Position numbers and translations under genes: made by a program. The notes below the pieces were generated by a model. The model searched no databases. It saw nothing but the letters and a program-made list of their open reading frames with translations, and was not told the origin of the DNA. A stretch of DNA of 64,000 nucleotides from Elsinoe ampelina (lineage: Eukaryota), in assembly GCA_010093995.1 (NCBI GenBank), contig ML992502.1, forward strand, positions 444,760 through 508,759. Reading direction: 5' to 3'. How positions within the stretch are numbered: the first letter of the stretch is position 1; every line of letters starts with the position of its first letter. Positions 1,548-33,081 of this stretch are shown piece after piece.

Positions 1548-3358
1548 TATATATAGCTTTAATATAAGGCTTTAATAGTTCTAATTACTCTCCTATAATT
1601 ATAATCTATTAGACTCTATAGATAACTAGAACTCTATTAGTAAGGCACTAGTGCCTTATATTATTAATGTTACTAAGATAGACTCTATTAAGTAGACTTC
1701 TTAGAAGAAAGAAAAGACTCTTAAGAAGTAGCTACTATACCTATATACTAAGCGTAAGTACTTAGAGCTAGAACTTAAGGCCTAGAGCCTTAAGGAAGAG
1801 ATTAAGTAAATATATTATATATATAATATAGAATATACTCTAGTAGGTTTTAATTATAGCTTATATACCTCTATAGAGTATATAGTAAGTAACACTAGTA
1901 TATAGAGTATATATAGTAGTAGTAGACTATTTATAAGGCTATCCTCTAGATAGCTATAACTAAGAGAACTATACCTCTATTAGAGTAAGACCTTAAAGGA
2001 AGTAAGATTCTTCCTAAAGAATCTTAAGGTTATCTTTATACTAGCCTTAGCTCTCTAAGGCTTACTCTACTAACTAGTAGAAGGTACTTTATAGAGTTAT
2101 ATTCCTTATAGGTAAGCCTAAATTAGGCATAAAGAACTAAAGAATTAAAGAAGAAGCTATTATAACTATAGTTCCCGCGTATACTATAATTAGTGTAACT
2201 ATTAAGGCAGAGTTAGCCCCTTTAGGTTTAGTACTACACCGGGGTTTAGGTCGGCCTCTAGCTAGCGTAGTACTACTAAGGGCTTAGTAGTACTAGCACT
2301 AGCTCTGCACTATAGCTATAATAGCACTATACTAGCACTAGGTATAGGTCGGGTTATATATATTCTAGACGTAGTATAGTACTAGGTTAGGTCGGTAGAT
2401 AAGTAGTATAGTGCTATTAAGTCCTTAGTGCACCCTTACTAGTACTATACTAGGGTTACTATTCTTATAGTAAATTCTTATAGTAACTACTATATCCTAT
2501 AACTCTTATTACTTTTCCGCTCTAAATACTTAAAGTTATAGTAGGTAAAGGATACTAGAGAGAAGCAAAAGTTATTAATTATTAACCCTTATATATAATT
2601 ACGATCTAATAGTGATTTATAGAAGATTAACCTAATTAACATTATCTATATAACTCCTATAAGCCTATTATATATACTTAGCTAGTAAGCTATACACTAC
2701 CTAGAACTAATACCTTATTATCTTATTATCTACTTTATCTAGAGGACATTCTATCCTTAGCAAGTTTACCCTTATATAAATTATAACTCTTAACTAGTAA
2801 ACCGGAGTACTAAAGCTATTAGGTAGAGTCTAAGACTAGAATAATTAGTTCTAGGTAGTTTAGCCTTCCTACTAACTTATAGTATAGTTATAGATTGCCT
2901 TAATACTATTAGATTGCTAGTTAATAGTAAGTATAAGGCTATCTAGGGCCTTAATCTCTACCTAAAGGTTGTTAATAAATTTATAGTAAGTAATATTAGC
3001 CTAATAAATAATAGAGAGGTAAGTAGTAGATATAGTAGTAGATTTGCTTAAATTCTAGTAACTATTAGTATAAGTTATACTATAGCGACGTAAAGGCATA
3101 CTAGATAGTTATTTAAATATTCCTAAGGAGAGAAAGAAGTAACTTAGCTAATAATCTACTTATATCCCTTAGTATAACAATAGCTATTGTTCGATAATAG
3201 CTATTATTAGTATTGTTATTTTTTTATAATAGACAATAGCTATTATCTATATTGTTGTTCTTATAATAGATAACGCTAGATATATATATCTTTTAGTTGC
3301 TATTTCTTCTTCTTCCTCTTAAACCTCTCTTTCTTGTCGTTTAATACCTCCTTCTATA

Positions 3359-3846
3359 ATGCCTCCTTCTTATACTTAACTCTACTTCGACCTAGTAGAT
3401 CTAATCCCCTTTTAGTCTTATAAGATAACTCCTAGCAACTACGCTAGGCCCTTATACCTACGTTAGTATAAAGCCTATATCTGCTATATAACTCTTATAT
3501 ATCTTAACTTTAACAACAACTACGAAATTTAAGCTAAATACATCTATAATAACTATAGAGGTTTAGTACTTTGCTATAAAGCCTACTATACTTATAATAC
3601 TCCTTGTAACTTTATAGGTGTTTCTAATCTAATCTTTCTCTATAATCTAACGAATATTAGTATAGTATCTTATAGACTAATAACATCTTTAACCTAATCG
3701 ACATATAGTGTACTATTAATTGTCTTATTCTTAGTAGAAGAGTAGATCTACTCTTGCTCTTTGCTATACGCTATAATATTAAACGTAAGTAAGAGAAGTT
3801 AGATTACATTAACAATAGCAATAATAGTATTTCTTCTAATAACTAA
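3359..3846 (+). pseudogene. hAT-1 cargo: small spliced Cys6 (Zn-cluster-like) protein relic
   Basis: ATG at 3359 (MPPS...). De-RIP pattern CKAC-x20-C-x11-CKAC-x6-C, then an intron, then TNNIFDLIDMQ. Clear nucleotide homology to the reverse complement of 18300-18784. Confidence 0.65.
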
Positions 3847-4559
3847 TCTAATTAAGGTAGCGTAGTTAAAGCGTTAGTAGGCCGATAGCTTTAGATAGTT
3901 ATTAATAATATAGACTTATACTTTATAAAGACTTAATTACGTTACCTCTTCCCGTAAGTGACTAAAATTAACTATAATAACAGCGCATATAAGCTCTTAA
4001 AGTAGGAGTGTTTATATTACCTCTAGCTATACTAGTAGTTACATTACTACTCTAGGTAGTACTATTAGTACTAGCGGTAGAAGCATCTCCCTCGTTATTC
4101 TCTTTACTATTAGTGTTATTCTAGAAAGTAACCTAACTATTATCGGGCTTAAACCTAGCAAGGAAGTTAGGAGTATAATAAGGTAGATATTAGTAATAGC
4201 GTAGAGAGTAGCATTAGTAATAAGTTAGCTAAGGTTGTAGGTGCTATAGTAGGGGTAGTTATTAAGGTTAATAATAAGGAAAGTAGCGCGGAGATTAGTT
4301 ATAGCTTTAGCCTTTATATTATAGTTAATCTATATAATTTCCTTATTAACGTTTTTATAAGTAGATCTAGTATAACTAATATAGATACAAATATAGTTAT
4401 ATTAAAGATACTAGCGAGCAAGAGAATAAGCTTCCTTAGGGCAGCTAACGAAGGGAGACTATTAGTATTAGTAAGTAGAATTATATATAGTAACAAGAAA
4501 GGTACGCGTAGAAGTGCTTTAGAGTAGGTATTAGTATAGATACTATAAGAGCGTTATTA

Positions 4560-7050
4560 CTCGGAGGCTATTAACTAGATACGCTTAGAATACTAGCCTC
4601 TAACCTTAGTAACGTTATATAGTAGATCTTTATCCTTATTATGCCCTTCTTCCTTGTTAACCTCTTTATTACTTAAACTACAAGTAGTAATATCTCTAAA
4701 GTTGTTACTTATACTATCTATCCTACTATTAGTATTATTGTTAGCGGTAGTAAAATTGTCTATCTTAGCTAATTAGATGTTTTAAAGATTGTTTTCTACT
4801 AGCTTAGAGACTATAATTTGTTAGATTGTCTACGAAAGTAGTTTATACCTTCGATCGCTAATAATATTCTTTACTATATTAAAAACATATTTAACACCTA
4901 CGCTAGTAATTAGTATTATAAGAATATTATAAGTAATATAAGCTAGTCGTAGAAATAAGTACTTATTTTCTTTCTACTAAGAAAGAATATTAAATTTTAA
5001 TATTTCTTATATAGGTAGAGTCCTAAGGTAATTCTCCCTTTCTATTCTTATTATATAGACGTTACTCTACCCTTATAAAAGTGTATTATCTTAGCTAGAT
5101 ACTAGAGGTGTAAAGCTACTCCTTATGTTTAATAAGGAAGGCTTCTTAAACTAGTAAGTAATAGACGAGGCTAGTAGAGGAGGCAGAAGAGTAGTTTAAG
5201 GAAGGTAGTTATTATTATAGTAATCGAGGTAGTCGAGGAACTATTTATAGTAAAGCGATTTAAAATATAGTTCCTACGAAGTATACTTATATATACTAAG
5301 TTTCTAAGTTAGATCTAAGATTATGCTATAATTAAATAGGAAACCTTAACCTTTACTTATTTACTTATAATACTTAGAAAGCTTAGTATAACTAGCTTTC
5401 GCTACATTTTATATAACTAATAGCTAGTCTAAGTTATTATTCTTTTCCTAAGTAGACTTAACTATATTAAGGAAGTTAAAAAGAGTATTATATATAAGCT
5501 ATATATATTATACTAATAGCGTATAAGACTAACTTAGCTAGTTAGTTATATCCTTAAAATTCTCTAGTATTTAGATAACAATCTTTAGATATATTATATA
5601 CCTATTTAGCATAGCCGAGGCAAAGGCGTTTTATATCTACGCGATTAACAGATGCTATATCTTAATTAGCTAGCGCTTTATTAGTTTAGGGCTTATATAT
5701 AATTATAATCTCTATGTTAAGCTATTTATTAATAATTAGTTAAAGTTTAATAGCTCGCTTATACATATTATACGTCGAGTTCTAATAGGTATAAATGTCC
5801 TAAACGACTAAGAGTTATTTACGAGGAGGTAGATATACTTAAAGAGATTTAAAGTGTTAGTAGCGTTAAGGGAATTAGTTAATTATAATACAAATTGTAT
5901 AGAGCTTTAAAATTAGTTAAAAAACTATAAGAAAGAACTATAAGAAATATAACTTACTTTATAGAGGGAATTTAGAACTAATAGAGTTATTTAGATATTA
6001 TAGAGATACTACTTCTTAAGCTTATTAGCTTTCTTATTATCCTTAGTAGTTTCTAGCTATAGGGCTTAAATAATATCTTATATAATAAGATTAATTACGT
6101 AGGCTAGATATAGAATTATATTCTTAATAGAGGACTAGTATATACTTTTCTTCTTAAGACCTTATTATACTTTAGATTATAGAGTGTTATTATTACTTAT
6201 ATTGTCCGCTATAATAGTAAGAAGATATATGTTAATCTTTTTTTCATTTAGAACTCTTAGTAGTTCTATACTAAGTATAACTCTAGTATACTATCCGCTA
6301 ATTAGTATAAAATCTAGTAGGCACTTATATACTTACTAGTTGTCGTTAATATAGTATACCTTTATAGCTATAAAACTTAGATAGTTATTTATAGACTAGC
6401 TATCTAGCGCAATTAAAACTTTTGTCTAACTACTAAGATTAGTAAGAAGATTAGACTAAATGTCCTTATAGTGCTCTTTTAATAGCCTTAAGGCCTACAT
6501 CCGACCTAGAATATTAGTATATAGCTAGAAGAAATATATAAATTAGAGAAAGAAGGAATTATTAACTATTCGGAATAACTAATTATAATTAATAAGGACC
6601 TTAATAAGCTCTTTTTTAAATTGTTCTAGGGAGAATTATAGTATATAGGATATAGTACTAGTAGCGTTTGCTTTTAATTACGTTAGAGCTATCTAAGCTA
6701 CTAATTATTTATAGCTAGGAGATTTTATATTCTAGTAGCTTTAGTATCTAAGATGTTTTATTAGGTGTTTATTACTAATTAAGTTCGTTGTTAGGTATTA
6801 TAAAGCTCTACTATAGCGGAGACAATATATAAGAGGTATTCTATTAGCAAGCTTAGTACCTTTATTAAAGTTAGCCTAAATAACTCTACGGCGGGTTATA
6901 GAATTCTAGTTTAGTAGGTTTCGTATTCTACTAACTCTTAATTTACTACCTATTAATGTTATAGGCTACTATGTTTTCTAGGCTTATATAGCTAGCTATT
7001 CTTTAAGTAGTATATCTAGTTAGTAAGGTAGATAGCTAACAATTTTAATA
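4560..7050 (-). pseudogene. hAT transposase relic (hAT-1)
   Basis: Minus-strand de-RIP motifs: BED finger ~6720-6830, IALDGWS ~6400, ITADNASNN ~6200, CLAHVINLI ~6100, TRWNSTY ~5780, and dimerisation domain ILSWWKENEHLFPRLARIARDIL..PITSVGVERVFN ~4990-4880. Ends approximate. Confidence 0.93.
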
Positions 7051-7339
7051 GTTTTATAGAATTAAGTAGAGGATAGATTATTCTAGTAATTAATATAGAA
7101 CTCTTTAAGCTTATAGAGGAGAGGTAGTAGTAGCGTAACAACTTCTAAGAGTATCTATAGTTAAGGATCGACTAAGTCTTTATTAAATACTAACATTTTA
7201 AGAGTAGAGATATAGAATATTACTAGCTATATAACAAGGAGTAGAAGACTATAAGAATGCTCTATAAAAATCTATTAGCTACTCTTAATTTATAGATTAA
7301 AAAAATTTTAATAGTATAGAACTAGAAAGCTACTAAAAC

Positions 7340-8642
7340 TATAGTCTAATTTTCCTAACTTAAGGTTTATTTTCTTATTCTTATCTATATTATCTTTACC
7401 CTTACTCTCCTTATTATTATTATTACCCTTATCTATTACCTTATTATTATCTTTATCCTAATTTTCTTTATTAGAATTATTAAAGTCTCTAGTAGTAACT
7501 ACCTTATAGTATATTTTAGCTACTTTCTTAGTCTTATACTTATTAAGTTCCTTATTAAGAAGGTCCTTAATCTTAGAGTTATTCTTAACTTTTTCTTTAA
7601 CCTTATTATTACTATACTTAATATAGTAATTGTTAGATTTAAGTAAAATATTATTATTCTTATACTTAAATTCTAGTTTAGGGGTAGGTTTATATTTGCT
7701 TTAATAGATTAGTATATAACTATAAGAAACAACTATAAGAAATAATATATACCTAATTATCTGCCTATACTACTTAGAGTTTAGTAGGTGTTATATTCTT
7801 AATAAACTTCTTAAACTTAGCTTAGTTACTATCGTTATAGTTACTAGTATTATATAGCAAGTTAATACTATTATAGTAGATCTTATAGATCTATTTCTTA
7901 AGAATTCTGCTAGTGCCGAGAAGATATTTTACTTAGCAATTTAGAAATATATTTATCTCGTTATAGAGCGCCTTCTTTATATAATTAGTAAGGAGTTACT
8001 TATAGTAAAGAAGAGTATTAGCTTTATAGATACTACTCTATTTTTAGTAGATAGATATAAACTTGTCCTTTAACTATTCCTCTATATAGAATTAGTAGAT
8101 ATACCGTAAGAATATGCTATAAGAAATATACTACTCTACTAGGTATAATAGTAAGTCTCTACTATCTTCTTATATACTATATCGAAGGTAGCTTCTTTCT
8201 TCTTATTAGATATTACTTAGAATTTCTTAAAGTTCTTAAGTTTTACCTTAAGTATATATTTTATAGAGTAATTAGTATTACTAGTAGTAGTAAGAGCTTT
8301 CTCCTCTATACTAGCTTATATAGTATAATCTCTTTACTAAATAGCTTACTAGGTATTACTAAGCTATACTTTCTACTATAGAATTCTAAGGGGGTAGCTA
8401 TAGTAAGGAGTTCTAGTATTCTAAGAGTAATTTTTAATCTAGTATTTAATCTTATCGGCCTCGGAATTAAAACTCTATAGTCTAGTTAGTATTTAACTAT
8501 AAGAAGTATCTATAAGAATTACTCCTATTATAGTAAGGATTACTTCCTCTTCCTTAGTTATTTCTTTAGTCTTAATTACTAAAGTATTAGTTATCTTTTT
8601 CTCTTTACTAAAGGTTTACTAATCTATAGGATTAGTAGATAT
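7340..8642 (-). pseudogene. hAT-1 cargo: unknown spliced gene 'X' with acidic C-terminal tail
   Basis: Reconstructed start at 8642, TATA-like run ~8763, intron ~7700-7752, D/E-rich tail after de-RIP. Shares blocks KIEYWI and GILEK..KI with 19075-20372. Confidence 0.6.
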
Positions 8643-9018
8643 TATAGATCGAGAATTAGTAGTAATTTATAAGAGAAGGTAGAATATTAAGTATAATAGG
8701 AAGTAAGATATAAGATATAAGTTTTATAAGAAGAAGATAAGGAGAAAAGGATTTAGTATTCCTTATATATATAGTAAATAGAGTAGCTAGAAATATAAGT
8801 AATAATAGGTATTAATCCTATTATTGTACTAATGTAAAGTTATTAATATTATTAATATAAAGTTGTTATAGTAGAGAATAACAATACAAAATTTATATTC
8901 TATATACTATTATAAATTCCTTAATAAGGCTTAATATCTTACTCTTAGTATTTTCGCCTTACTCTTCTCTACCTTTATAAACAAATTTTAATAATTAATT
9001 TAATAAATTTATATAGCT

Positions 9019-9603
9019 ATAGCTCGTAAGAAGTAAGTAACACCTCTAAAAAGAGCAAAGCTAAGGAAGTAAGACGCTAAGAAAACTACTACTAAAAAGC
9101 CTACTATAGGTAGTTACGTAACAAAATTTAAACTAGTATTAACTAGACAAATTTACTAGGCGAAGAGCTATAGGTTTAAGCTAGGTAGTTAGTTTCTTAT
9201 AGTAAATTCTTATAGTCTTATATCTAATATAGTATAGCTATTGCCCTCTAAGAGATTCGTTACTACTAGAAGATAACTAAACTTCTTATATATAAGCTTC
9301 TCTTCTCCTACGTTATTTACGACATTACGTAAGATATTAAGTTAACACTTATAAGTAGAAATTTACGCTTTATGCTAGATGCTATTAAGTATCTCTAGGA
9401 AGTAAGTAAGGTAATACTAGTAGGATATTTCGAAAGTATATTAACTATGTATTTAAAATATATAATACCTTATACTAACAACTATAGTAGACTATAATCT
9501 TAATGCTATCTATACTAAGTATTATACTATTATATAGAAAGACTCTTAGCTTACTAGGAAATATTATAACAAGTACTACTTACTTACTTTCTCTAATTAG
9601 TAA
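9019..9603 (+). pseudogene. hAT-1 cargo: histone H3-like gene relic (3 exons)
   Basis: De-RIP reading MARKKQ...HRFKPGT / (V)ALQEIRHYQKTTELL..KLPFSR.....QD...NLRF...LQE....LVGYFE / DCNLNAIHAKR.TIMQKDSQLAR. GT-AG introns at 9188-9237 and 9436-9490. Confidence 0.9.
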
Positions 9604-12600
9604 GACCTCTCCTCTATAATACTATAAGAATAGACTATAAGAAATAGGTAGGTTTATTTTTACATAGACTAGACTATTAAATTTCCTTTCTATAGACTTA
9701 TTATAATACTAAAGTATAGTATAGTAACTATAGTCGCCTTAAAGCCTAACTAAGGCGTAGTACTATAATGTAGTATAATACTAGAATTTAACCCTAGTAC
9801 TAATTTAGTATAGTGCTATTATAGTATAGTATAGCGCTATTATAGTATAGTGCTATTCTTACTTAACTATAGTACGGTGCTAGTACTAGTATAGCTTAGC
9901 GTAGTACTAGTGCTAGTACTAATGTAGTAGAGTATAGAGCTAGTACTATTTAGTTTAGTACTAAGTGCCGACCTACTAAGAATAGCTCTACACTAGTACT
10001 AGGGTCGGCCTTCGGCCGCCCTAACCCCGCCCTAATAGTTACACTAACTATAATAGATCCTCGCTGCTACTATATAGGTTAATACTACGAACTATAAATA
10101 TAAGAAGAAGGTAATAAGTCGAGTTATAGACGACTCTTAAAGGAAGTAGACCGCTAGCTAAAAATTTTAATATTCTCTTTGTTACGCGTTAACTTTTTAT
10201 ACTATTCTATTTATAACTAACTACACTAAGTATAGCTTACTCTAACTATAGCGACGACAACTATTACGTAAGTAAGATCTCTCTACTCTCTACTAACAAC
10301 AATAATAAACCTATTTAGTTATTCTATTATAACCTTATCTGCCTTAATAACTCCGACCTAAAGAAGAGATTATAAGAGTTAGATAGTATAATTACTCTAC
10401 GTAAGGCCTTTACCTTTATTAAGTCTATCTATAATAAATAGGTCACTACGTGTAACTTAGTATATACTAATACTCTCGATCTATATAACTAGTTAGATAA
10501 CGTCCTTATTAAACTAGATATAGCTAATAGTACTACTAATAATCTTACTACCTAGACTACGTACTACCTCGCTAACATTAGTAAACTTGAAACTAAACTA
10601 GCCTAGCTAAGAGCTAAGATAGAACGCGCTATACTAGCCTCTTCTATACGTAGCGTTATATTATTAGAGAAGATACTAGACTCCGCTATCTTCTCTAGTA
10701 GTACCCTAGAATAGTTCGAGGTCTTTAAATATTAGATAAAGAATAAGATATATACTAACGCTAACTACTTCCCTACTAAGGCTACTTAGTTTACTTACCT
10801 ATACTTATGCCTCTCTAGTAAAGTATATACCCTCGTTATAGACACTGCTAGTAATAATACTATTAGCGTTAATAAGACTCTTACTCTTCTAGCCTAACGC
10901 TTTAAGAACTCTAACTATAAGGCTATAGTATATACTTAGTTCGCTAGTCTCTTCTAGCGTAATACCTCCTTTAACTCCTTTATTAGCGAGTTTAATAAGT
11001 ATGCCCTCTACGCTAAGATTACTAAAGACGAATAGCTCTACTAGCTTTAGTAGAAGATATCTAGTAAGCTATATACTACCCTCGTTAACTTCGATACTAA
11101 TAGCCTCTCTACCTTTATTATAAAGGCTTATACTACTAATTATAATATCTAGTAGAGTAACCTTATTACTAAGTGTACCTAGGCTTTATACCCTAGCCTA
11201 GCTATAAGCTACGCTACTACTGCCCCTACTTATGTATCTTATTCTACCTCTATATCTGCTACTCTAGCTACCTTTTACTCTATTACTAGAGGCGCTCTAT
11301 AGCCTTTCTATCTAACTTAGGCACTTACCTGTTACGTATATAGTAAACTCGGCTATATCTCTACTAAGTATATAGCTAGTACTTTAGAGAAGGCTACTTA
11401 CGCTACTATACGCCCTATACGTATTAGTACTATAGAGGAGATATAGTAGCTCTAGAATTACTTAGCCGAGTTAAGTAACTAAGTCGATACTAGTTCGGCT
11501 TATAAACTAGATCTAGTTTAGCCTTAGTTCGACCCCGAAATAGACTATAAACCTACTAGTTCCTCTAGCTAGAGAAACAAGTAGCTAGAGAACAAGTTCT
11601 ATTCTCTAGCGGAATAAGAGTAATTTAAGATAGATCTAGAGATATACGCTTAATAAATAGCGTTATTAGCTACTATATCCCTGCTATTATAACTCCTATT
11701 ACTATTTATAACCTCTATAACTACTTGTACACTATTACACTTTAAGCCTTTATTAATACTAGCGCGCTTATTAGCGCCGTAGTTAATTATAACGTCCTTA
11801 ACAAGCTAAAGAGCTTTAGCTACCCCGTAGTACTAGCTAGTCTTATTTAGCTTTAAGCCTATAATAGTGTTCTAATAGAGTAAGTTACATATAGCGTTCT
11901 CTTTACTACTACTGTTTCTAGTAAGCTAAATAACCTTACTACCTTTTATATTATAGATATTAGCTAATTTAATATTATTCTTAGCCTTAGCTAACTTAAG
12001 ACTAATAGAGCTACTATTAACTACAAGTATAGCTAAGTTATATACAAAGAAGAGTTTTCGCTAATAGTCGTTAAGTAGGAGCTACCGTAGCTAATTAAAA
12101 GGCTAGAATCTAGATCTAAGCCTAGCTTAGATCTAGGAATCTAGCTCGGTAAAGCTGCCGTTTTAGTTTAGAATTAGTTCGGTCCTAGTTTAATATATAA
12201 ACTAGGTTCTAGCTTAGCTACTAAGATAGGGCGAACTAGACTATATTAACTACTAGCTCTTAGGTCGAACTTTAAGCTAAATTAGAGAGAGTTTAAGCTA
12301 ATCTCCTATAGCACTTAGTTAATGTATAAGTTCTTCTACGTACTTGCCTACGTAAGTAACACTAAGTAAGAAGAGCTAACTATTACTTTTATTAGCGCTA
12401 CTACCTTCGTATTAGTAGCTAAATACTAAGAGAATAAGGTGTTTATAATCTTAGTAAAGAATATTAAAGATTACTACTAAATAGCCTCTAAGCTAGAACT
12501 AGACTCTATAGTAGTTCTCTCTAAAGAGCTATACAAATTTACTAACGTCTTCTCTAAGGAGTAATCTAATATACTACCTCTCTATCGGCTAGGATTTAAT

Positions 12601-15600
12601 AACTAGATCACGCTTAAGGATAGTGCTAAACTACTACGTATAGAACCCCTATAGCGCCTATCCCCTAAGGAGCTTAATATAGTAGAGTAATTTATCTATA
12701 AACACCTTAATAAAGGCTTTATTATACTAAGCTCTACTAGCTATTCCTTATCTATTCTCTTTATTCGTAAGCTAGGTAGAGGTCTCTACCTCTATGTTAA
12801 TTACTATAGCCTTAATAAGGTAACTAAGTAAGATATCTATCTACTACCTCTTATTAAAGAAACACTTACGCGCGTAAGTAAGGCTAAATAGTTTAGCAAG
12901 ATTAACATCTATTAAGCCTTCTACTACCTCTATAACTCTATCGATAGTAAGGATCTAACTATGTTCTTTATATATATAGGTAACTTTAAGTAGTTAGTAA
13001 TGCCTTTTAGCTTTACTAATACCTCTATAGTATAGTAGAGGTTTATAAATTAGAATTTTGTCGATATACTAGAGTACTTCGTATTAATCTATCTAGATAA
13101 TATTCTTATCTATACTAATAGTACTTACCGAGAGCACGCCGAGTATATTAAGCTTATACTCTAGAGACTCTATAAATTAGGCCTAAATATTAATATTAAA
13201 AAGAGCAAGTTCTACCTAATAGAGGTAAAGTACCTCGGTATTATTATTAGCTAAGATAGAGTTAAGATAGACCCTAAGAAGGTAGAAGCTATTTAAGCGT
13301 AGAAATAGCTAGCCTCTAGTAACACTACTTAGGTAAGAAGCTTTATTAGCTTCTATAGCTACTATCGCTACTTTGTTAAGGAATTTAGTACTATTGCTAA
13401 GCTATTAAATAATCTACTTAAGAAAGATACTACACTATAGAACGATAAGTACACTACTATATTTAATTATATAAAGTATACTATTATAAGTATATCTATC
13501 CTTACGTACTTCGATTGCTTAAAGTAGATAGTCCTTAAGACTAATAGTTCTAATACTACTACTACTAGAATTCTATTATAATATAACAAATCTAATATTC
13601 TTTAGCCTATTACCTTTTTTAGTAAGTCTATAAACGAAGCTAAACGTAACTACGCTATCTACGATAAAGAACTACTAGCTATTGTTTAAGCCTTTAAGGA
13701 GTAAGCCTCTAAGCTTATAAGTACTTAATCTAATAAGGCTATCTATGTCCTTACTAACTACTAATCCTTAATGCACTTTATAAAGACTTAGAAGCTGTTA
13801 CGCTACTAAGTATACTAGGCTCTCTACCTTACGTAGTTTAACTTTAAGATTATATATAGGCCTAGCGCTACTAATAGTAAAGCTAATATACTTATAAGAA
13901 GGAATAGAGATATACTACGCTCGAAGGAAGACTCTAACCTCCGCTAGACGTTATTACTATATAAGGTACTTAATCTACATATTATTAACAAACTAAATCT
14001 AGGTTGTATCTAAACTAGATTACTAGCTCGAGTCGAACTAGCATTTAGTTCGTTATCTAGTTTGTAAACTAGTTCGTTATCTAGCTTATTACCTATCTTA
14101 CCTTCTATTTCGTAACCTATATTAGCGCCTATTTCGGCTACTAAACTAGGCATCTACGTAGTACCTATAATAGCTATAGAAGAGCCTTTATCTCTTTTTA
14201 AAGAAGTAGCTAAAGCTAACTTATAGGACGCTAAGTGTAAAACAGTTTAAGACATCTACTATATAATAGAGACCTTCCTAAAGAGGAAATAGCTATTGTT
14301 AACTAATGTTACTATTAATAAAGGGATGTTATAGGTTGCTAGCTAACTATTCGTACTGTAGTTAATAGCTATAAAGGTTATCTAAGAGATCTATATATCG
14401 AAGAACTATATATATACTAGAGCTACTAAAATAGCTACTATAATTAAGACTACCTTTTTTATCCTAGACTATAATAACTTTATTAAGAGGTTTATTACTA
14501 ATTACTATAACTATAAACGCTTAAAGGCTTACTATAGCTTACTAGCTAGCCTTCTATTGCCTTTACCTATTCCGGAAAGACCCTAGTAACATATTATAAT
14601 AGACTTTGTTACTAGTCTACCCTTAGCTAATAGCTATAATATAGTACTCTATGTCGTTAATCGTTTATCTAAGAAACAACACTTAATCTCTTATTTCTCT
14701 AGAGATAGAGAGACCTTAGCGTTTAAGACTACTAAGTTATTATTCTTCTACGTGTAGAAACTATATAGCCTACTAGATAGTATTACCTCCGACTACGGTC
14801 CCTAGTTCGTTAGCGACGTATAGAGTAGACTCTACTAGATCCTAAAAATTATAGCTAAGCTCTCGACTACTAGCTACTCTTAAACTAATAGCTAATTAGA
14901 GGTTATAAATTGTAAGTTTAAGTAAGTTATCTATTTATACGCTATACGCTTTAGTAATTAGACTCTTATTCTACTAGTAGTAGAGTTCTCTACTGATACT
15001 AGCCTATTAGAAAGTACTAAGTTATTACTCTTTAAGGTTACTAGAGGATATAAGCCTAAGCTAAGCTTCTAGCCTCTCTCTAACGCACTATTAACAAGAG
15101 CTAAGCTTAATAAGGCTAACATCTAAGCACTTACTAAATAACTAAAGGAGGCGCTATCTATTACTAAGGCAAACCTTACTATTACCTAATTACGTATAGT
15201 GGAATAGGCTAATAAACACCGCTAGCTAATAGAATTTAAGGTAGGTAATTTAGTTTAGTTATTAACAAAAAACCTCTAGCTTTAAGGCAATCTAAAGCTA
15301 CTACTAAAACATGTTAGTCTATATAAGATCTTAGAGAAGCGTTTAAGGCTATTATATAAGCTAGAGCTTCTACTAGCGCTATAACAAATTTACCTAGTAC
15401 TCTACGCTAATCTCCTAACTAAGTACTCTAATAACTCCTTTCTAGGCTAAGCCTTTAAAGAGCTACCTCTAATAGAGGTTAATAGTAAAGAGAAGTATAA
15501 GGTAGATAATATAATTAACATATGTATATTATAAGGGAAGCTAGTTACCTATGTAAGCTAGAAGAAATATCTAGAGAATCTTACCTAGTAGCTAATTAAT

Positions 15601-15729
15601 AATCTTAAAGGAGTAGCTAATATACTATACGACTATCTAGACTCTTACACGGATAAGCTAAGGCTAAAATAGATTAATAGATAGTGTATAATAGCGTTTA
15701 AGAGTAAACGCGTTTAAGAGAGAGAGTAG

Positions 15730-15931
15730 TAATATAAGGTAGATACAAACTAGATTTAGTTAGGATTTAGTTTAGATTAGTCACGTAATCTCGGTATTAT
15801 AGCCTAGGCTTTTAGCCGCTCTACCCTCGATATTACATATGCTTTATATACTAGCTTTCTTCTTCTTCTTCTAAGTCTCGATATCTTAATAAATAGACGT
15901 AATTAACTTCTTATCTTACTAGTCGTAATTA
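15730..15931 (+). repeat. Family B LTR (3' LTR of B1, ~202 bp)
   Basis: Follows a purine tract. Homologous to 40665-40867, 46704-46906, 49069-49271 and, inverted, to 33082-33286 and 61683-61885. Confidence 0.93.
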
Positions 15932-17800
15932 TAGAGGCTAGTAAAGTAATTAAGGAGTCTATCTTATTATACTAACGAAGGTACTATAAGAACTTCTTAT
16001 AATAGTCGTCTTTATAGTAAGGTTCCTAAGTCTCTATATCCTAAGTGTTATTAGCTACTACTTACTAGAAAGACTATAGGCGCTTACATTATATACTATA
16101 AGCTTCTTAGAGGGGTTAAGAATTGTTATATAGTTATAAAGTATATCCTTTCTATCCTTAGTTTATATATAGTATTTCTTAAGCTTCTCTTGTCCCTTTA
16201 CTACTACCTTTTATATAGTAGCTAGCTATATAGGTAGATTGTTATAATCCTTAGTACTAATTAGGCCCTCTTCGATTTTATCTAAGAAGTTAAAGAGTGT
16301 ATTATATATTGTCTATATATATTAGAGAAGAGGTTAGCTACTAGTACTTAGCTATGTTATTACTTTCTTAAAGTTCTCTAGTATTACTATAATAGATTTA
16401 AGATGCTACTACTTATTTAGATTAAGTAATAACTTAGTAAGGTTATAGTTATTAACATTAGAGAGTAGTTTAGATATTAATACCTTAGAAGAAGTCCTCG
16501 GTGCTTAGAGTATAGTCTTATTCTCGAGCTAATCCTTAATAAAAGGTTTAAGCTTTAATACTTACTTATATATATTATATATCGAATTCTAGCGTGTCTT
16601 AATATTATATATAACTTAGTACCTCTTCTTAGGTAGTAGATACTTCTAGAGGTCTATAAATCGTTTAAACTATTATAGAGAACTATTAATTATAATATAT
16701 ATTACATAGAGCTTACTAATATTAGAATATAATAAAACAATATAATAAATATTATATACCTTCTATAGTAAATTTAGAATAGAGACTAATATTATAATAT
16801 CCTAGATATAGTAGTTTTATAACCTCTCTACTATGTTAATCTCTTTGCTTATCTTAAGTTTTAGATACTTAATAATGTTCTATATAACAAGATTAATAAT
16901 ATATACTAGGTATAGAATTATATTCTTCTTTATATTCTACTTAATATCTAGTATACCTAGGCTTCTTTTAAGAGACTCTCGGAGTATTCTATTATTTAAT
17001 ATATTGTCTACTATAACTATAAGTAGTTATTACTTAACTAATGTATCTTTTAGTACCTATATTACCTTATTTACTATAGCTTTACTAGTGTAGCGACCTT
17101 AAAGAGGTATTATTTCTAGGAGCTACTCTTATAATTACTATTAGTTATTAATAAAATAGCCTTCAATTATAATAAACCCTAAGTAGTTATTAGTAGACTA
17201 TTTATCTAACGCTATTAAAAGCTTAGTGTTCTTACTAAGGTTAGAGAGTAGTAATTTTTATAACCTCTTAAATTATACTACTAGTGTTACTTAAAAAAGA
17301 GTCTAGCTAGGTATAGTAATATTAGGTTAGAGAAAGTAGAGGAATTAGCTAAAGGTAAGACGCTTAACTATATAGAAAGACTAGTTATAGTTAGTAACTA
17401 CGTAAATAAGCTTGTAGTAGAAGGTGTTAGTAGAGAATAAAGAGACAATTTAGTAAATGCTCTTTATATGCTATTATAATTACTTAAGGGCTTTTTAGGT
17501 AGGGCTTTACTCGTAGTAGTACTTAATAACTATAGTATATTTCTAGGACTTAAGATGTTTCTCTATTACTTTATTACTAGTACAATAGTAAGTAGAATAA
17601 GTAAGTATATTACTATATCTATTATAAATAACTTATAGTTCTCTATTATAAATCTTAGTAGCTTCTATAATATTTGCCTATAGACCTCTAGAACGTGCTT
17701 TAGAATTCTAATTTAGTGCATTTTTCGTGCCCTCTCTATATATAGATACTATAATTATTTAACTCTACTAGTCTTTCTAGGCTTATTATAGAGGTTAATC
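15932..17800 (-). pseudogene. hAT transposase relic (hAT-2), C-terminally truncated
   Basis: Minus-strand motifs: BED finger ~17530-17630, IALDEWS ~17200, CLAHIINLV ~16900, TRWNS ~16590. The dimerisation domain is not seen; the relic is cut at the B1 LTR. Confidence 0.88.
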
Positions 17801-18299
17801 CTTAGATCTCTTACTAGGTTAAAAAGGCAAGTATTTAAGGAGTTATAATTGTTATATCTTACTATTATATCTAACATTTTAAGTAGAGATTATAAAGCTA
17901 CGTAATTCTACTAGAATAGCTAGAGAGAAATATATAGTATCTCTAAGTTATAGGTTAAGTACCGACTTAAAGTTAGAAGCTTTAGATATGTTAATTAGTA
18001 TAGATTATGTTATTTAATAAAGGTAGATAACTTATTATAGAATGTTTATTAACGTATTTATAATATGTAATAATAAATTCTATACTATACTATAGAAACT
18101 TTAAAGTAAGAGATATATTAATTTCTATAGGCTAGACTTATATTATATAGAGGCTAAGGAATAGGTAATATAATTAAAATTAAAAGCATGTCTATATTAG
18201 GGTAGAGTAGAAAATTTTTAAAATTAAAGGTATATCTATATTATAAAAAACCTACTAAAGCTATTAGCCTACTAATACTTTATTTATATTATACTACTA

Positions 18300-18784
18300 A
18301 ACTAGTTACTAGAAGAATTAGAACTATTAAGATCCTTAGGATTTAGAATTATCTAGCTTATCCTACTAGCATTTAACACTATAGTATATATTAAAGATTA
18401 TAATCTAATCCTAGATAAGATTAAGATAGTGACGATTAAGTATATACTATATGTCGATAAGGTTAAAAATATTATTAGTCTAGGAGCTATTATACTAATA
18501 CTTATTAGAGAATATAGTAGTATTAGATTAGAAATACTAATAAAGTTATAAGGGGTATTATAAGAGTAATAGGCCTTATAGCGAAGTTCGGAGTCTCTAT
18601 TATTATTATAGATATAAGTAGTCTACCTTTCCTTACTATTAATAAATTACTTAGTTATATAGTAGATATAAGCTTTATACTAATATAAGTATAGTAGCCT
18701 AGCGTAGTTACTACGAGTTATAGTATAAGGCTAATAGAGAATTAGATCTCCTAGGTTAGAATAGAGTTATACGTAAGAAGCTAT
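18300..18784 (-). pseudogene. hAT-2 cargo: small spliced Cys6 protein relic
   Basis: De-RIP CKAC-x17-C-x10-CKAC-x6-C, intron at the same position as in 3359-3846, then TNNIFDLIDMQ. Confidence 0.65.
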
Positions 18785-19074
18785 AATAATAAGGAAGAGA
18801 GGTTTTAGAAAGAAGAATAAACAGGAACGAGATAGCGTATATATCTAGTACCTCCTATTGTTTATAGTAACAATAGTAATAGAAATCTATTATTAGAAGT
18901 AATAATATAGATAATTTACTATTATTAGAGGTAACAATTAGAAGCATAAATAATAATAGTAGCTATATAGGAAGAGATCTTATTATAAAACTTAAATCTA
19001 TAAAAGGGCTAGACTATACTATAGATTAAACTACTTAGTAGTTAATTATAGTATAGAAAATCTACTAGTTAAAG

Positions 19075-20372
19075 CTAGTAAATTTATCTTCCTTAGTATC
19101 GACTATTTCCTTATTCCCTTCCTTATTATTATTCTTATTATTATTCTTATTATTATTCTTCTCTTTATCTCTATTCTCTAAAGAACTCTCTACTTTAACC
19201 CTCTCTCCCTTATTAATAATCTAATCCTTATTAGAGAAAAACCCCTTAAACTCTATATACTACTTATCTGTCTTATACTTATTAGCTAGTTTCTTAATCT
19301 TAGAGTTATAGTCTAGCTCGTATACTTCTTTATACTTGTTATTGTTATTAGGCTTTATATATTTACCTTTATCTATAAGATAGATTAGCTTAAGTAGTTA
19401 ATACTTAGCTAGAGGTGTAGAATTATAAGCTCTACTATTTGTTAGTATACTAACGTAATAATAATATATAATAATAATAAGGAACTTACTACTAGTTAGG
19501 ATCGGAGATAGTAGTAAGCCTACTTTCCTTACTAAGTTTCTAGATAAACTTTAAGTACTTCTTCTTAGTATTCTCGTTAGTATCTTTATTAATAGTAAGC
19601 TTAGTAGTACTAGCTATATAGATCTTATACTTAAGCTTCTCGAGAATTCCGCTAGAACTATATATCTACTTAGCTACTCTTAATATATTATTCTCCTTAC
19701 TAGACTTAGTAGTATAAGCTACCTTTACCTTTATAAGGACTTCTATATACTTTTAATATATAGCAAATTTTCTAATACGCTACTATTTAATATAGACTTT
19801 TCTAAACTTGCTAGATAGCTATTTATCTATAATCTATTAGTGTTAAACGTAATAATATAGTAGTATAATTATATAGCTTTACTAGGCGTTAAAATAGTAC
19901 TACTTTATTTTCTTAATCTTTTCTACGAGAAGTTCTACCTTTACTTCTTTACTAAGGTTCTAGACTTAAGTATTTATATTAAACTTCTTAAGTAAATTCC
20001 TCTTTATGCTATAATTAGTATCTCTAGCTACTTTAAGTACCTTAACCTTAGCTAACTATTAAGTATCTTTATCTTAGCGTATAATATTCTAAATATTCTA
20101 CTTTAAAGACTTACTTAAACCTACTTTAAAACTAGTTAAACAACTATAATATACGTTGCTACCTTAACTATGCTAAAGGATCTAGTATTTAATTTTAGCC
20201 TACTTAGACCTAAAGCCCTATACCTATTAGCTTAATACTTATAATAAAACACTATAATAATTATCTCTATTATAGTTTCGAACTTATTAAACTTATTCTT
20301 AATCTTAGGAGAGCTACTAGGAGAGGTATTAGAAGGTATATTAGCTATAGAAGTATCTAGAGAGGTTACTAT
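19075..20372 (-). pseudogene. hAT-2 cargo: unknown spliced gene 'X' with acidic tail
   Basis: Homologous blocks to 7340-8642, intron ~19435-19490 (gtaagt...ctaac...tag on the minus strand), TATA-like run ~20493. Confidence 0.6.
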
Positions 20373-21010
20373 AGTAAAATAAGATATAAAAGTTAAACTT
20401 AAGAGCGTAGAAACAAAAGAATAGTAGAGATAAGAAGAAAGAAAGTTAATAGAAGAAGAAGGAGAATAGAGGAGAGTAATATAGCTTTCTACTATATATA
20501 AAGTAATAATAAGGTAGCTAAGGTAGAATATAAAATATAAAATGTAAGGTTTTTAAGAATTATAGTATACTAAATTAGTATTGTATTATTACGCTAGATT
20601 ATTACATACTTATTATTAGTACTCTATAATATCTAGATTCTTCTTCTTCTAAGTGTTTAAATAAATCTAATATTATATGCCTTACTATTATAAATAATAT
20701 TATAATAAGTAAGTATTCTATATACTATATATTTCTAATTTATTAATTTTATATTCCTATTATAATATTATATTCCTATTGTTAGCTATACTATTACTAG
20801 CTACTAAATTATTATATATTTCTCTTCTTATTATATATTTCTCTTCTTCTACTTCTTTTACCTCTTCTCTTTCTACTTATCTTCCTTTATACTATTACTA
20901 TATCTACCTCGTTACTTTCTATGCTCTCTACTACCTTACCCTTACTACTATAAGATTACTTTATATTATAAGTACCTCCTAAGACTCTATCCTTAGTAGT
21001 AATAGTAACT

Positions 21011-21600
21011 ATACCTCCTAAGAGAGGTACTATAGTACTAACCTATAGTTATAGTTATAAGGGTAAGTTATCTAGTAGACCTAAGACTTCTACTACTAAG
21101 TAACTTTATAAGATAACTATTACTCCTAGAAAGAAGAATAAGTTTAAGGCTAGTAGTATAATTATTATAATTAATTATTATATTAAATTACTAATACTAT
21201 ATAGCTATTACTCTCCGAGAGATTTATTACTACTAGAAGTTAACTAAACTTCTCTACTATAAGCTTCTCTTTAGCTACCTTATCTATAAGATTATTAGAG
21301 ACTATATTTGTTAAGACGAAAGCTTTTATATCTAATCTAAAGCTCTTAAAGTACTTTAGGAAGTAATAGAGGTATTTATTATTAAGTATATAGAAGGTAT
21401 TTATTATTTAAATTTAATACTATTATAGATACTAATATTCTTAGACATAAACCTTAATTGTATTTATACTAAGTAAGTTACTATTAACTAGAAAGATTTA
21501 TAGCTTACTTGTCGCTATTATATAAAGTTTAATATATATAACTAGGACAATTAGATAATTTATAGTAAGGACAATTATTCTATAAAGGTAGATAAGTAAG
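21011..21600 (+). pseudogene. hAT-2 cargo: histone H3-like gene relic (3 exons)
   Basis: De-RIP reading MPPKRG...KFKAGT / (V)ALREIRHYQKSTELL.RKLPFSRL.REIIRD.....ESFRIQS.AL..LQEATEAF....E / D.NLNCIHAKRVTINQKDLQLACR. Introns at 21156-21204 and 21397-21444. 3' end approximate. Confidence 0.9.
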
Positions 21601-21922
21601 TAAGGCGTAGGCTATAAGAGTAGATAGAAGGTACTAGCAAGATTAACGTAATTAATAAACGTAATTATAACCTTTAACTTTTAAATTTTAATTTCTAAAT
21701 CTTAAGTTCTTAGGATATATATCTACTCCTCGACCCTTAGGCACCTATAGGTACTATTAGGTAGTGTTATAAGTAACACTATAACTAACTATATACCTAA
21801 GGCTAAGTAACACTACCTAAGGCTTAGAGAGTTATAGTAGCTAAGCTTTAGGTACTAGTATCGCTATAGGTTAGGTTATAGGTAGTAATTCTAGTACCTA
21901 ACCTAACCTAAAAACTACTCTA

Positions 21923-30482: not shown

Positions 30483-31436
30483 TAGAGTAGTTTTTAGGTA
30501 CCTAACGCAACCTAAATAGACTCTGAATTTAGCCTAATAGAGTTATATTACCCTATAAAAATTTCGCTTCACTTTCGCGTTTCTCGTGATTTACTGCGTT
30601 AATCTCGGCTAAATCTAGGTAATATATATATTATAAGAATTTACAAAAAAATGCATACTAAATAGTATATAGCATGTTTATATAATCTAAAAGCTTAATT
30701 TTATATAAGTATTTAAAAAGTTTGGCTTTCTTTCTAAAATTAGAGTTTTATATTATATAAGCATACTATATATCATTTAGTGCGCATTTTTTTGTAGATT
30801 CTAATAATATATATATTATCTAGATTTAGCCAAAATTGACATAGTAAATCACGAGAAACGCGAAAGTAAAGCGAAATTTTTACTAGGGTGGTTTTTAGGT
30901 ACCTAATGCAACCTAACTAGACCCTGGATTTAGCCTAATAGAGTTATATTACCCTGTAAAAATTTCGCTTCACTTTCGCGTTTCTCGTGATTTACCGCGT
31001 TAATCTCGGCTAAATCTAGGTAATATATAAATTATTAGAATCTACAAAAAAATGCGCACTAAATGGTATATAGCATGCTTACATAATCCAAAAGCTCGAT
31101 TTTATATAAGTATTTAAAAAGTTTAGCTTTCTTTCTAAAATTAGAGTTTTATATTATGTAAGCATACTATATACCATTTAGTGTACATTCTTTTATAGAT
31201 TCTAATAATATATATATTACCTAGATTTAGCTAAGATTAACATAGTAAATCACGAGAAATGCGAAAGTAAAGCGAAATTTTTACAGGGTAATATAACTCT
31301 ATTAGGCTAAATCCAGGGTCTAGTTAGGTTGCATTAGGTACCCAAAAACCACTCTAATTTTTATAGGGTAATATAACTCTATTAGGCTAAATCTAGAGTC
31401 TAGTTAAGTTATATTAGGTACCTAAAAACTACTCTA
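30483..31436. mobile_element. Palindromic hAT-type MITE (outer copy, 473 bp without the nested copy)
   Basis: Termini tagagtagtttttaggtacc and ggtacctaaaaactactcta. Exact 8-bp TSD gctaagaa at 30475-30482 and 31437-31444. Long inverted arms. Inserted in the family A chromodomain. Confidence 0.93.
30884..31356. mobile_element. Second copy of the same MITE (473 bp) nested in the first
   Basis: Termini tagggtggtttttaggtacc and ggtacccaaaaaccactcta. 8-bp TSD atttttac / atttttat (one C>T) at 30876-30883 and 31357-31364. Confidence 0.92.
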
Positions 31437-32509: not shown

Positions 32510-32927
32510 TATAAAGAAAGTATAAGTTGTATATAGAGCACTATATTAAAGTAGAAGTCTAAGAAAATAAAAAGGTATTTAGATATAGAAGAGAGAAAGT
32601 AAGGAGTAATAGTAAGGTTATATATACTAACCTCTAGTATACTATATCTTTATTATAGTTACTAGTATAGAGTATATATTCCCTATAGTACTACTAGAAA
32701 TTTTTAGGAAAAATAATACTATTACTACTAATTAGCCTTAATACTATAGTAACTAGATAAACGCTCTCTTAGACCTAGATTATTAGGACTATAATAACTA
32801 AGTAGTATATAGTTTATATATAATATACTATAGAAAATGTCTCTAGGCCTATATTACCTTTGTTATAGTTATATACTTAATATACTAGTAAGGAGCTAAG
32901 AATAGCTCTCCTAGAGGAGAAGGTAAT

Positions 32928-33081
32928 TATAAGAGTATAATATTAGAGTAGTACTTAGTAGTAACTAGTTCTACTTACGTAATATACTAGAATATCCTAT
33001 ATAGTACTTATACTATAGACTTAATAGTAATTAGTTCTACTACTAATAAACTATTTAGTTAGATAGGTATTCTCTATATTA
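32928..33081 (+). repeat. Family A 3' LTR, cut near its end by B2
   Basis: Matches 1391-1544 and is preceded by a PPT. Confidence 0.82.

Follow-up and report, generated by a model that had tools for sequence, protein, structure and literature searches.

The 64,000-nucleotide stretch of DNA analysed (the window) is RIP-type and AT-rich throughout, with a GC content of 0.24-0.40. It holds two hAT elements, hAT-1 and hAT-2, and the remains of a Gypsy retrotransposon that serves as the insertion host of hAT-1 (Table 1). TpA/ApT ratios of 1.8-2.2 and (CpA+TpG)/(ApC+GpT) ratios of 0.15-0.19 were obtained for both hAT elements, and all element copies in the window are RIP-inactivated.

Table 1. Coordinates of the transposable elements and their component modules, given as window positions.
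Feature	Positions	Strand	Remarks
Gypsy LTR left remnant, hAT-1 insertion host	2129-2190	+	98% identity to 49368-49429, 93% to 40963-41021
hAT-1 left TSD copy	2183-2190		8 bp, ACTATAAT; identical to 10047-10054
hAT-1, complete RIP-inactivated hAT element	2191-10046		7856 bp; TIRs, TSD, empty sites, dimerisation domain
hAT-1 left TIR	2191-2216	+	starts TAGTG; 26 nt matching right end
hAT-1 small-ORF block	3156-3926	+	ATG 3359 to ~3925; ~200 bp conserved sequence upstream
hAT-1 transposase remnant	4806-7057	-	one frame continuous from ~7057 down to dimerisation domain, 4806-5036
Region X of hAT-1	7058-9027	-	candidate coding region, strand putative; minus-strand-readable, K/N/D/E-rich low-complexity tract ~7340-7700
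H3-like gene of hAT-1	9019-9580	+	start ATA (ex-ATG) at 9019; PDB phmmer E 1.1e-7
hAT-1 right TIR	10021-10046	-	26 nt matching left end
hAT-1 right TSD copy	10047-10054		8 bp; identical to 2183-2190
Gypsy LTR element, rest	10047-15931	+	84% identity to 41014-46906
hAT-2, left-truncated, RIP-inactivated, diverged subfamily	15932-21922		collinear with hAT-1 5266-9615 save relocated block
hAT-2 transposase remnant	15932-17857	-	lacks C-terminal dimerisation part; tblastn to hAT-1 transposase
hAT-2 small-ORF block	18223-18962	-	inverted, between transposase and X; homologous to hAT-1 block
Region X of hAT-2	18813-20743	-	candidate coding region; K/N/D/E-rich tract ~19100-19500
H3-like gene of hAT-2	21138-21560	+	fold exon 21195-21396, intron 21397-21444
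hAT-2 right terminus	21893-21922	-	TAGAG... then GGTTAGG repeats; 19.5-20 against hAT-1 ends

The boundaries given for hAT-1 in the initial annotation, which placed TIRs and an 8-bp TSD at its ends, hold: ACTATAAT is present as an exact duplication on both sides of the element, and the TIRs differ from one another only by three G/A transitions. The target site is single and uninterrupted in two sister Gypsy copies (41014-41021 and 49422-49429); on either side of hAT-1 (2129-2190 and from 10047 on) the flanking sequence runs collinearly with these copies, giving two empty sites. The TSD, the short TIRs and a C-terminal dimerisation domain (PF05699, Dimer_Tnp_hAT; E = 1.6e-7, 31.4 bits relative to a Pfam gathering score of 21.4) place hAT-1 in the hAT superfamily. 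The host element has LTRs of ~200 bp, and in a sister copy Integrase_H2C2 and SH3_Tf2-1 are preceded by RT_RNaseH_2 (E = 7.5e-17), the domain order of Ty3/Gypsy elements. hAT-1-like sequence is high-copy in two organisms, as 3707 contig pieces from organism A and 12693 from organism B were placed on hAT-1 at ≥80%, with 30 of 30 bins covered. Variant places among the organism A pieces comprised 357 transitions and 3 transversions. Low cover by organism B contigs at 3501-3762, 4025-4548 and 6645-6906 is given no biological reading here. Two runs guessed to be RNA contributed 0 pieces on hAT-1, a count that says nothing about expression.

hAT-2 had been assigned its own, different pair of TIRs, and this assignment was not borne out. 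Position 15932 is the base directly after the Gypsy 3' LTR (15727-15931), and the supposed left TIR is the end of the Gypsy element. The first 30 nt of hAT-2 match its right end no better than chance (32 of 57 interior 30-mers starting with TAGAG match as well), and the flanks, cgtaatta and tgcctagt, differ instead of forming an 8-bp duplication. The similarity profile between hAT-1 and hAT-2 stops at the Gypsy junction. Counterparts of hAT-1 2191-3165 and 3916-5265, the latter including the dimerisation domain, are missing from hAT-2, and when the lost left part was sought in 1-2128 and 21923-24500, scores of 57-64 were returned and judged to be noise. The right terminus scored within the null range (null mean 13.6, null maximum 24) when compared with the hAT-1 ends. 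By eye, this terminus resembles published consensus termini.

The proposal that the two elements carry diverged but homologous transposases was confirmed by tblastn, which aligned 17725-16061 of hAT-2 with 6923-5259 of hAT-1 (32% over 577 aa, E = 1e-51, 184 bits). Transversions between the two are in excess at third codon positions (p = 8.6e-5; p = 9e-6 in a protein-guided version). None of the six hAT-2 frames generated a Pfam match, the counterpart of the dimerisation domain lying beyond the truncation, and no Pfam match to the catalytic RNase-H-like core, DUF659 or a BED finger was found in the RIPped frames. When the transposase, read on into X, served as query in a word-indexed protein search, 6848 candidates emerged, none at E ≤ 0.001; such a search is weak here because RIP destroys 5-residue words.

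An H3-like gene is located near the right end of each element, as had been claimed. Using phmmer against the PDB, the hAT-1 gene, which carries five inserted residues in loop L1, aligned with residues 46-105 of H3.2 (E = 1.1e-7; Pfam Histone, E = 0.13), and the hAT-2 gene aligned with H3 residues 46-105 and with CENP-A-loop chimeras (E = 1.6e-4). In the hAT-1 gene, intron 1 has its donor at 9110, the start of the fold exon is at ~9228 and intron 2 occupies 9436-9490; the intron at 21397-21444 in hAT-2 interrupts the same codon in the same phase. Intron conservation, which had been claimed for the orthologues generally, is checkable for the H3-like genes only and holds there; it speaks against an origin of this hAT family's H3-like genes from a processed transcript. 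Both copies have an extended loop L1, a divergent tail and stop codons, and are best classed as RIPped pseudogenes of H3-like type and not as H3: the fold aligns and the reading frame is not intact. No codon periodicity was detected in them (p = 0.46-0.88), which marks the periodicity test as weak. An H3-type histone-fold gene, which characterizes the H3-like-carrying hAT lineage, is found in both elements.

Transversions between hAT-1 and hAT-2 amount to 19-21% with a ts/tv ratio of ~1, far above the 1.4-2.7% (ts/tv 5-9) among the RIPped Gypsy copies, and the divergence of the two elements is therefore real and not due to RIP alone. Pairwise homology was found in all four modules (transposase, small ORF, X and H3-like gene); outside them, the termini, the intergenic stretches, 7066-7290 and 8866-9165 are no longer alignable. 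Judged by their architecture, hAT-1 and hAT-2 appear to belong to two diverged subfamilies of the Dothideomycetes H3-like-carrying hAT lineage. We conclude, with a probability of about 0.7, that dead transposons lie nested here within an AT-rich, RIP-mutated stretch of filamentous ascomycete DNA, among them members of two diverged subfamilies of an H3-like-carrying hAT lineage.

The module that the initial annotation termed a Cys6 gene is the best conserved part of both elements and appears to be a self-contained ~0.77-kb cassette whose small protein product would span ~160-190 codons. The blocks 3156-3926 and 18962-18223 (inverted) align with a score of 663 and a purine/pyrimidine identity of ~0.9, and the translated match between 3245-3811(+) and 18886-18344(-) spans 191 aa at 50% (E = 5e-37). 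Homology, as claimed for 3359-3846 and 18300-18784, stands, together with the difference in position and strand. The reading frame was indicated by tblastn (139 bits in the ORF frame versus ≤97 in the others), by stop density (12 stops per 189 codons versus 23-30 in shifted frames) and by an enrichment of transversions at codon position 3 (p = 0.035); a protein-guided phase test was not significant (1.40, p = 0.34). The Cys6/Zn2Cys6 identity is unsupported. A Pfam search with both copies returned 0 families at E ≤ 10, Zn2Cys6 (PF00172) included, and the spacing C-x2-C-x6-C-x5-12-C-x2-C-x6-8-C could not be placed by eye with Tyr taken as ex-Cys. Tyr accounts for 18-19% of the first 100 codons relative to a background of 8-11%, with other windows reaching up to 31%, and at two positions one copy has Cys where the other has Tyr. 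A C/G-preferring reading of the two copies restored little because both were RIPped at the same sites. The two-copy profile gave 0 matches in the PDB at E ≤ 0.05. The sole match (E = 6e-4) when this profile was run with HMMER against 1.84 billion representatives, a 1350-aa tandem-repeat protein aligned in five stretches, was judged spurious.

Region X had been annotated as a homologous gene, of which the homology is upheld and the gene status is not. A RIP-aware local alignment of 7058-9027 with 18813-20743 scored 641.5, whereas 30 shuffles scored 272±23 (maximum 343) and five real controls and one reverse-complement control scored ≤292; this alignment of the enclosing regions supports the homology claimed for 7340-8642 and 19075-20372. 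In the translated comparison no frame or strand prevailed (65.9 bits plus versus 65.5 bits minus), and codon periodicity was not detected (p = 0.85). Stop density by frame disclosed no consistent open frame across both copies. Pfam searches with all 12 whole frames and with 8 chosen fragments gave no match for X or the small ORF, and a minus-strand frame of X gave 0 PDB matches at E ≤ 0.05.

These negative results for X, the lack of third-position bias among them, favor an alternative in which X is no protein-coding gene: it would be a spacer, a regulatory stretch or a leader of the transposase, its low-complexity tract would be trinucleotide-periodic, and its conserved patches would be cis elements; just six collinear 150-bp windows exceed the null maximum. 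We regard this alternative as possible but on the unlikely side. The tract is K/N/D/E-rich on the minus strand in both copies, the form that a D/E-rich tract takes after G-to-A RIP, and the periodicity test that X failed was also failed by the H3-like genes as positive control. An expressed central ORF occupies the same place and orientation in a Pyrenophora element, according to the available text of its description (PMC3538342). In hAT-2 the small-ORF block separates the X tract from the transposase, so the tract is not the transposase N-terminus. X is retained here as a candidate coding region.

The small-ORF block differs in place and strand between the two elements, similarity drops sharply at both of its edges, and its transversion divergence is 11.9% as compared with 19-21% elsewhere, a lower value that could reflect later acquisition and not stronger constraint. 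The Pyrenophora element, moreover, is described with three ORFs only in the available text (PMC3538342). On these grounds the block might not be ancestral cargo: each element could have received it independently, either as a short repeat in its own right or as a cassette captured later. We consider this improbable, since the two copies share no TIRs and no flanking duplication, and the remaining 50 kb of the window contains no further copy. The organism A pieces cover the block in the same way as they do the remainder of hAT-1 (85 of 3707 fit only partly), none of the 12 best-supported of 395 loose ends falls at 3156 or 3926, and one organism B contig (3085-3205) spans the left edge in hAT-1 context. 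Independent capture of H3 and the other genes by each element (convergent transduplication) is far less probable still, even though the Pyrenophora and Mycosphaerellaceae events are regarded as independent in the available text of PMC6710886. The transposase, X and H3-like gene have the same order and orientation in both elements, collinear DNA homology continues through X, and the two H3-like genes share the extended loop L1 and the codon and phase of the intron. We infer that the modules were probably inherited from one ancestral element rather than by repeated capture. The initial annotation had further argued that the cargo was selected; two truly diverged elements do keep the same modules, and for selection itself there are weak statistics from two dead copies.

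The arrangement could have arisen in four steps. A Ty3/Gypsy retrotransposon would have hit or abutted hAT-2, and hAT-1 would later have inserted into that Gypsy copy, generating the 8-bp duplication. A deletion may then have taken away the 5' end of the Gypsy copy together with the left portion of hAT-2, and RIP would afterwards have ruined every reading frame. In the once active elements, these additional genes would have served the transposon. Their most likely role would be that of a variant H3, with a long loop L1 and a divergent tail, partnered by the acidic-tract X. Together they would modify the nucleosomes at or near the element, for example permitting escape from heterochromatic silencing or aiding excision and integration, and the small ORF would supply a third factor.

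We also put forward, tentatively and as a rather doubtful extension, an old Dothideomycetes-wide hAT lineage with a selected three-gene set for its own chromatin, in which the Pyrenophora and Mycosphaerellaceae cases have one origin. In that reading the set consists of the long-L1 H3 variant, a divergently transcribed acidic-tract partner (X, the Pyrenophora 'central ORF') and a very well conserved small Cys/His-rich protein. Until now, the capture of histone genes by hAT elements has been seen as an accident in which a housekeeping gene was transduplicated. If the same accessory set is kept across deeply diverged subfamilies and fungal orders, the cargo is probably useful to the transposon. 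If true, this would provide a tractable case of a DNA transposon in eukaryotes that codes for chromatin proteins of its own, with intact expressed copies existing in Pyrenophora. Fungal Kyakuja-Dileera-Zisupton/Plavaka DNA transposons carry TET/JBP genes and illustrate the same idea of accessory chromatin genes kept by DNA transposons, in another superfamily and with other cargo.

H3-like genes within hAT elements of Pyrenophora tritici-repentis, which the initial annotation had mentioned, are indeed published: the available text describes a 5.6-kb element with a transposase, a central ORF and an H3-like gene (Manning et al., 2013; PMC3538342). A chimera joining the central ORF's N-terminus to the transposase's C-terminus implies that the two are on the same strand with the central ORF upstream (PMC3538342). 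The central ORF lies where X sits, and the window layout, on the transposase strand X followed by the transposase, with the H3-like gene beyond X next to the right end, matches in position (PMC3538342). Of the module thought to be new as a whole, the H3-like gene plus X therefore appears to be a known layout (PMC3538342), and the small ORF looks new. Full-text literature searches returned the 2013 and 2019 papers as the only relevant ones, and no account of an additional small ORF in hAT elements that carry H3 turned up in them; a 2016 Fusarium poae paper, in its available text, merely cites the 2013 Pyrenophora paper. The Pyrenophora copies are near-identical, un-RIPped and expressed, with three ORFs in 5.6 kb (PMC3538342), whereas the window elements, likened to them by layout, measure 7.9 kb and at least 6 kb, are RIP-dead and mutually diverged, and carry the extra small-ORF cassette. 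No intact relative of hAT-1 or hAT-2 was retrieved.

RIPped H3-carrying hAT families are also reported from six Mycosphaerellaceae (Dhillon et al., 2019; PMC6710886). According to the available text, these are likewise high-copy hAT elements with an 8-bp TSD that are confined to AT-rich RIP blocks; they have 18-20-bp TIRs, termini starting TAGA(G/C) and H3-like copies full of stops (PMC6710886). By eye, GGTTAGG-type subterminal repeats were recognized at the ends of the published consensus sequences as well as at those of the window elements. None of nine window words (6-14 nt), read in either orientation, occurs in the published 45-kb consensus file, a word test that is weak at RIP-level divergence. 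The 9.5-kb P. fijiensis element contains either one H3-like copy or two, reported to be retrocopies lacking introns; in the available text neither a dimerisation domain nor any further domain ('no other domains') was found in it (PMC6710886). The window elements differ in having one intron-bearing H3-like gene, a dimerisation domain (hAT-1) and two further conserved modules, and may therefore belong to a different family (PMC6710886). Taken together, the window adds to these systems a second, diverged pair of H3-carrying hAT elements, a conserved intron and an undescribed, strongly conserved small ORF.

Two diverged hAT elements lie in the window, the RIP-inactivated hAT-1 and a second element, hAT-2, and each carries an H3-like gene (H3L), a central region (X) and a 0.77-kb block with a small ORF. 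They were followed up using the 64-kb window, contigs of public runs and the literature. The window is AT-rich throughout (GC 0.24-0.40), and only seven stop-to-stop frames of at least 80 codons are present between 1500 and 23000. RIP indices within the elements are extreme (TpA/ApT 1.8-2.2; (CpA+TpG)/(ApC+GpT) 0.15-0.19); the left flank (1-2128) is far less RIPped (GC 0.40, (CpA+TpG)/(ApC+GpT) 0.72).

Self-comparison revealed a repeat of ~6.2 kb with ~200-bp LTRs; the window has at least six copies or fragments of it, which are mutually 82-87% identical and differ almost exclusively by transitions. One copy contains RT_RNaseH_2 (E 7.5e-17), Integrase_H2C2 and SH3_Tf2-1 in Ty3/Gypsy order, and the repeat is a Ty3/Gypsy LTR retrotransposon. 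hAT-1 sits within one of these copies: its flanks, 2129-2190 and 10047-15931, align collinearly with 40963-46906 and with the stretch from 49368 on. The 8 bp ACTATAAT lie on either side of hAT-1 and occur once in the sister Gypsy copies, and the element ends form a 26-nt inverted repeat whose only mismatches are three G/A transitions. The terminal inverted repeats and the 8-bp duplication of the target site proposed for hAT-1 are thus confirmed, giving the best proof of a past hAT insertion that sequence can offer. Elsewhere in the window, 1379-1548 is 93.5% identical to 32920-33085, which adjoins another Gypsy copy, and unclassified repeat families (87% identity) lie between Gypsy copies (46908-49068 and 54686-56846; 39178-40660 and 53202-54684). 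The segment 30483-31356 matches itself directly (30483-30889 versus 30884-31289, 92%) and in inverted orientation (82%), forming a tandem or palindromic repeat with units of ~400 bp, and a run of non-ACGT letters at 27569-27704 within an AT-rich block is probably an assembly gap.

Coordinates of the two hAT elements, their parts and the Gypsy copies in the window
Feature	hAT-1	hAT-2	Elsewhere in window
Element	2191-10046	15932-21922	
hAT dimerisation domain	4806-5036		
Small-ORF block	3156-3926	18962-18223 (inverted)	
Region X	7058-9027	18813-20743	
K/N/D/E-rich tract (minus strand)	~7340-7700	~19100-19500	
H3L fold exon	9228-9437	21195-21398	
H3L interrupting segment	9436-9490 (55 nt)	21397-21444 (48 nt)	
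Gypsy copies/fragments			10047-15931; 33080-38285 (inverted); 40665-46906; 49066-51678; 58968-61682; 61683-64000 (inverted)

The initial annotation credited hAT-2 with terminal inverted repeats of its own, which was an over-reading. Its claimed left end, 15932, is the base directly after a Gypsy 3' LTR; of 57 interior 30-mers starting with TAGAG, 32 match the right end at least as well as its first 30 nt do; and the flanking octamers differ from each other. Neither hAT-2 nor its flanks contain a counterpart of two stretches of hAT-1 (2191-3165 and 3916-5265, the latter including the dimerisation domain). hAT-2 is therefore a left-truncated copy, in which resemblance to a hAT end is confined to the right terminus (TAGAG, then GGTTAGG repeats).

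A single minus-strand frame of hAT-1 extends from ~7057 down to the hAT dimerisation domain (E 1.6e-7; 31.4 bits versus a Pfam cut-off of 21.4). The transposases of hAT-1 and hAT-2 are 32% identical over 577 residues (E 1e-51, 184 bits; other frames 111 and 105 bits), and their transversion differences cluster at third codon positions (p=8.6e-5; p=9e-6 in a second test). The Gypsy copies are separated by 12-14% transitions and only 1.4-2.7% transversions (ts/tv 5-9), a RIP signature, whereas 19-21% transversions separate hAT-1 from hAT-2, at ts/tv ~1. This contrast upholds the claimed divergence: the two elements are old, separate subfamilies, whose difference exceeds the effect of RIP alone. 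In the part of hAT-1 that separates the small ORF from the dimerisation domain, a plus-strand frame of 118 codons (4171-4527) lacks any stop, and the opposing minus-strand transposase frame over 4200-4800 is likewise unusually open; neither has a surviving counterpart in hAT-2, and Pfam matches are at chance level only.

Each element contains one H3-like gene, as had been proposed, and no further H3-like gene was found elsewhere in the window. The hAT-1 fold exon matches residues 46-105 of solved H3.2 (E 1.1e-7) apart from five extra residues in loop L1, and that of hAT-2 matches solved structures at E 1.6e-4, the top match being an H3/CENP-A loop chimera. The two genes share the codon and phase at which they are interrupted, inside an E-D pair following an LVGxFE motif, which bears out the conserved intron position for H3L; each interrupting segment starts with GTAT and finishes with TAG, and that of hAT-1 contains TACTAAC. 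In hAT-1, an ATA (formerly ATG) at 9019 opens a tail reading A-R-K-K-stop-V-T-P-L-K-R, which is H3-like at the start and then divergent.

The small-ORF block is the best-conserved part of the elements (150-bp window scores 88-208 versus a null maximum of 61; 11.9% transversions). In hAT-1 it is placed to the left of the transposase; in hAT-2 it is inverted and stands between transposase and X. Neither terminal inverted repeats nor duplications were found that would mark the block as an independent transposon. The frame from ATG 3359 (ATA in hAT-2) is 50% identical over 191 residues and scores 139 bits versus at most 97 in other frames, with 12-13 stops per 189 codons versus 23-37 in shifted frames. 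Nine of its stops are common to both copies; likewise, 24 of ~50 stops are shared in the bona fide transposase frame. A third-position transversion excess was detected in the DNA alignment (p=0.035), and the protein-guided version was not significant (1.40, p=0.34). We read the small ORF as what was once a protein-coding gene, accompanied by an upstream region of its own. Its homology and relocation thus stand, but not the label 'Cys6': no Pfam family was found at E<=10 and no PDB relative, the spacing is unlike Zn2Cys6, and Tyr-rich windows also occur elsewhere. The sole match among 1.84 billion representatives was judged spurious. Tyr makes up 18-19% of the first 100 codons and two columns pair Cys with Tyr between copies, which would be compatible with a once Cys- or His-rich protein. 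A palindromic 10-mer, AATAGCTATT, occurs three times at 3175-3250, just upstream of the hAT-1 small ORF, and is not evident in hAT-2; these copies are possibly a regulatory site.

The homology claimed for gene X held for the two regions, whose RIP-aware local alignment scores 641.5 (30 shuffles 272+-23, maximum 343; six real or inverted controls at most 292), though patchily, with six collinear 150-bp windows above the null maximum. Its status as a gene is less clear, as no strand or frame is preferred (65.9 versus 65.5 bits) and no codon periodicity was seen (p=0.85) in a test that the H3-like control also failed. Both copies carry a K/N/D/E-rich tract on the minus strand; G-to-A changes by RIP turn an acidic D/E tract into such a tract. 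Because the small-ORF block of hAT-2 stands between this tract and the transposase, the tract belongs to X and not to the transposase, and X is therefore likely to be a minus-strand gene, head-to-head with H3L.

Contigs give neither copy numbers nor linkage; in one run from the source organism (organism A), 3707 pieces fell on hAT-1 at >=80% likeness, covering all 30 bins, with 357 transitions versus 3 transversions at variant places, and in a second organism (organism B) 12693 pieces covered 30 of 30 bins. From this cover and the variants in organism A, at least two organisms harbour the hAT-1 family as a high-copy, RIPped repeat. Three organism B contigs join across 8094-8097 to 9618 and one across 7714-8494, which suggests internal-deletion derivatives without part of X and the H3-like gene.

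The initial annotation knew of no description of the whole module and underestimated how much had been published: an H3-like cargo with a central ORF is how elements of this kind are already known to be laid out. In the literature searched, no report of a further small ORF in H3-carrying hAT elements was found. The new findings are a second pair of subfamilies, deeply diverged and retaining the known layout, an H3L intron that is conserved, and a small ORF that is strongly conserved and has moved. The cargo may act as a chromatin toolkit, an idea testable in Pyrenophora, which has intact, expressed copies. Dhillon et al. 2019 (PMC6710886) describe RIPped H3-carrying hAT families in six Mycosphaerellaceae (9.5 kb, 20-bp TIR, 8-bp TSD), with intronless H3 copies and no other domains reported there. 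Words from hAT-1 were absent from its consensus file, a search that is weak at RIP-level divergence, and by eye the termini given there resemble those here in their TAGA(G/C) start and GGTTAGG-like subterminal repeats. In Pyrenophora tritici-repentis, where the element measures 5.6 kb and has a transposase, a central ORF and H3L, Manning et al. 2013 (PMC3538342) report a 2.3-kb derivative encoding a chimeric protein with the start of the central ORF and the end of the transposase; this implies a shared strand for the two and a central ORF upstream of the transposase, exactly the order of X and transposase in hAT-1 and hAT-2.
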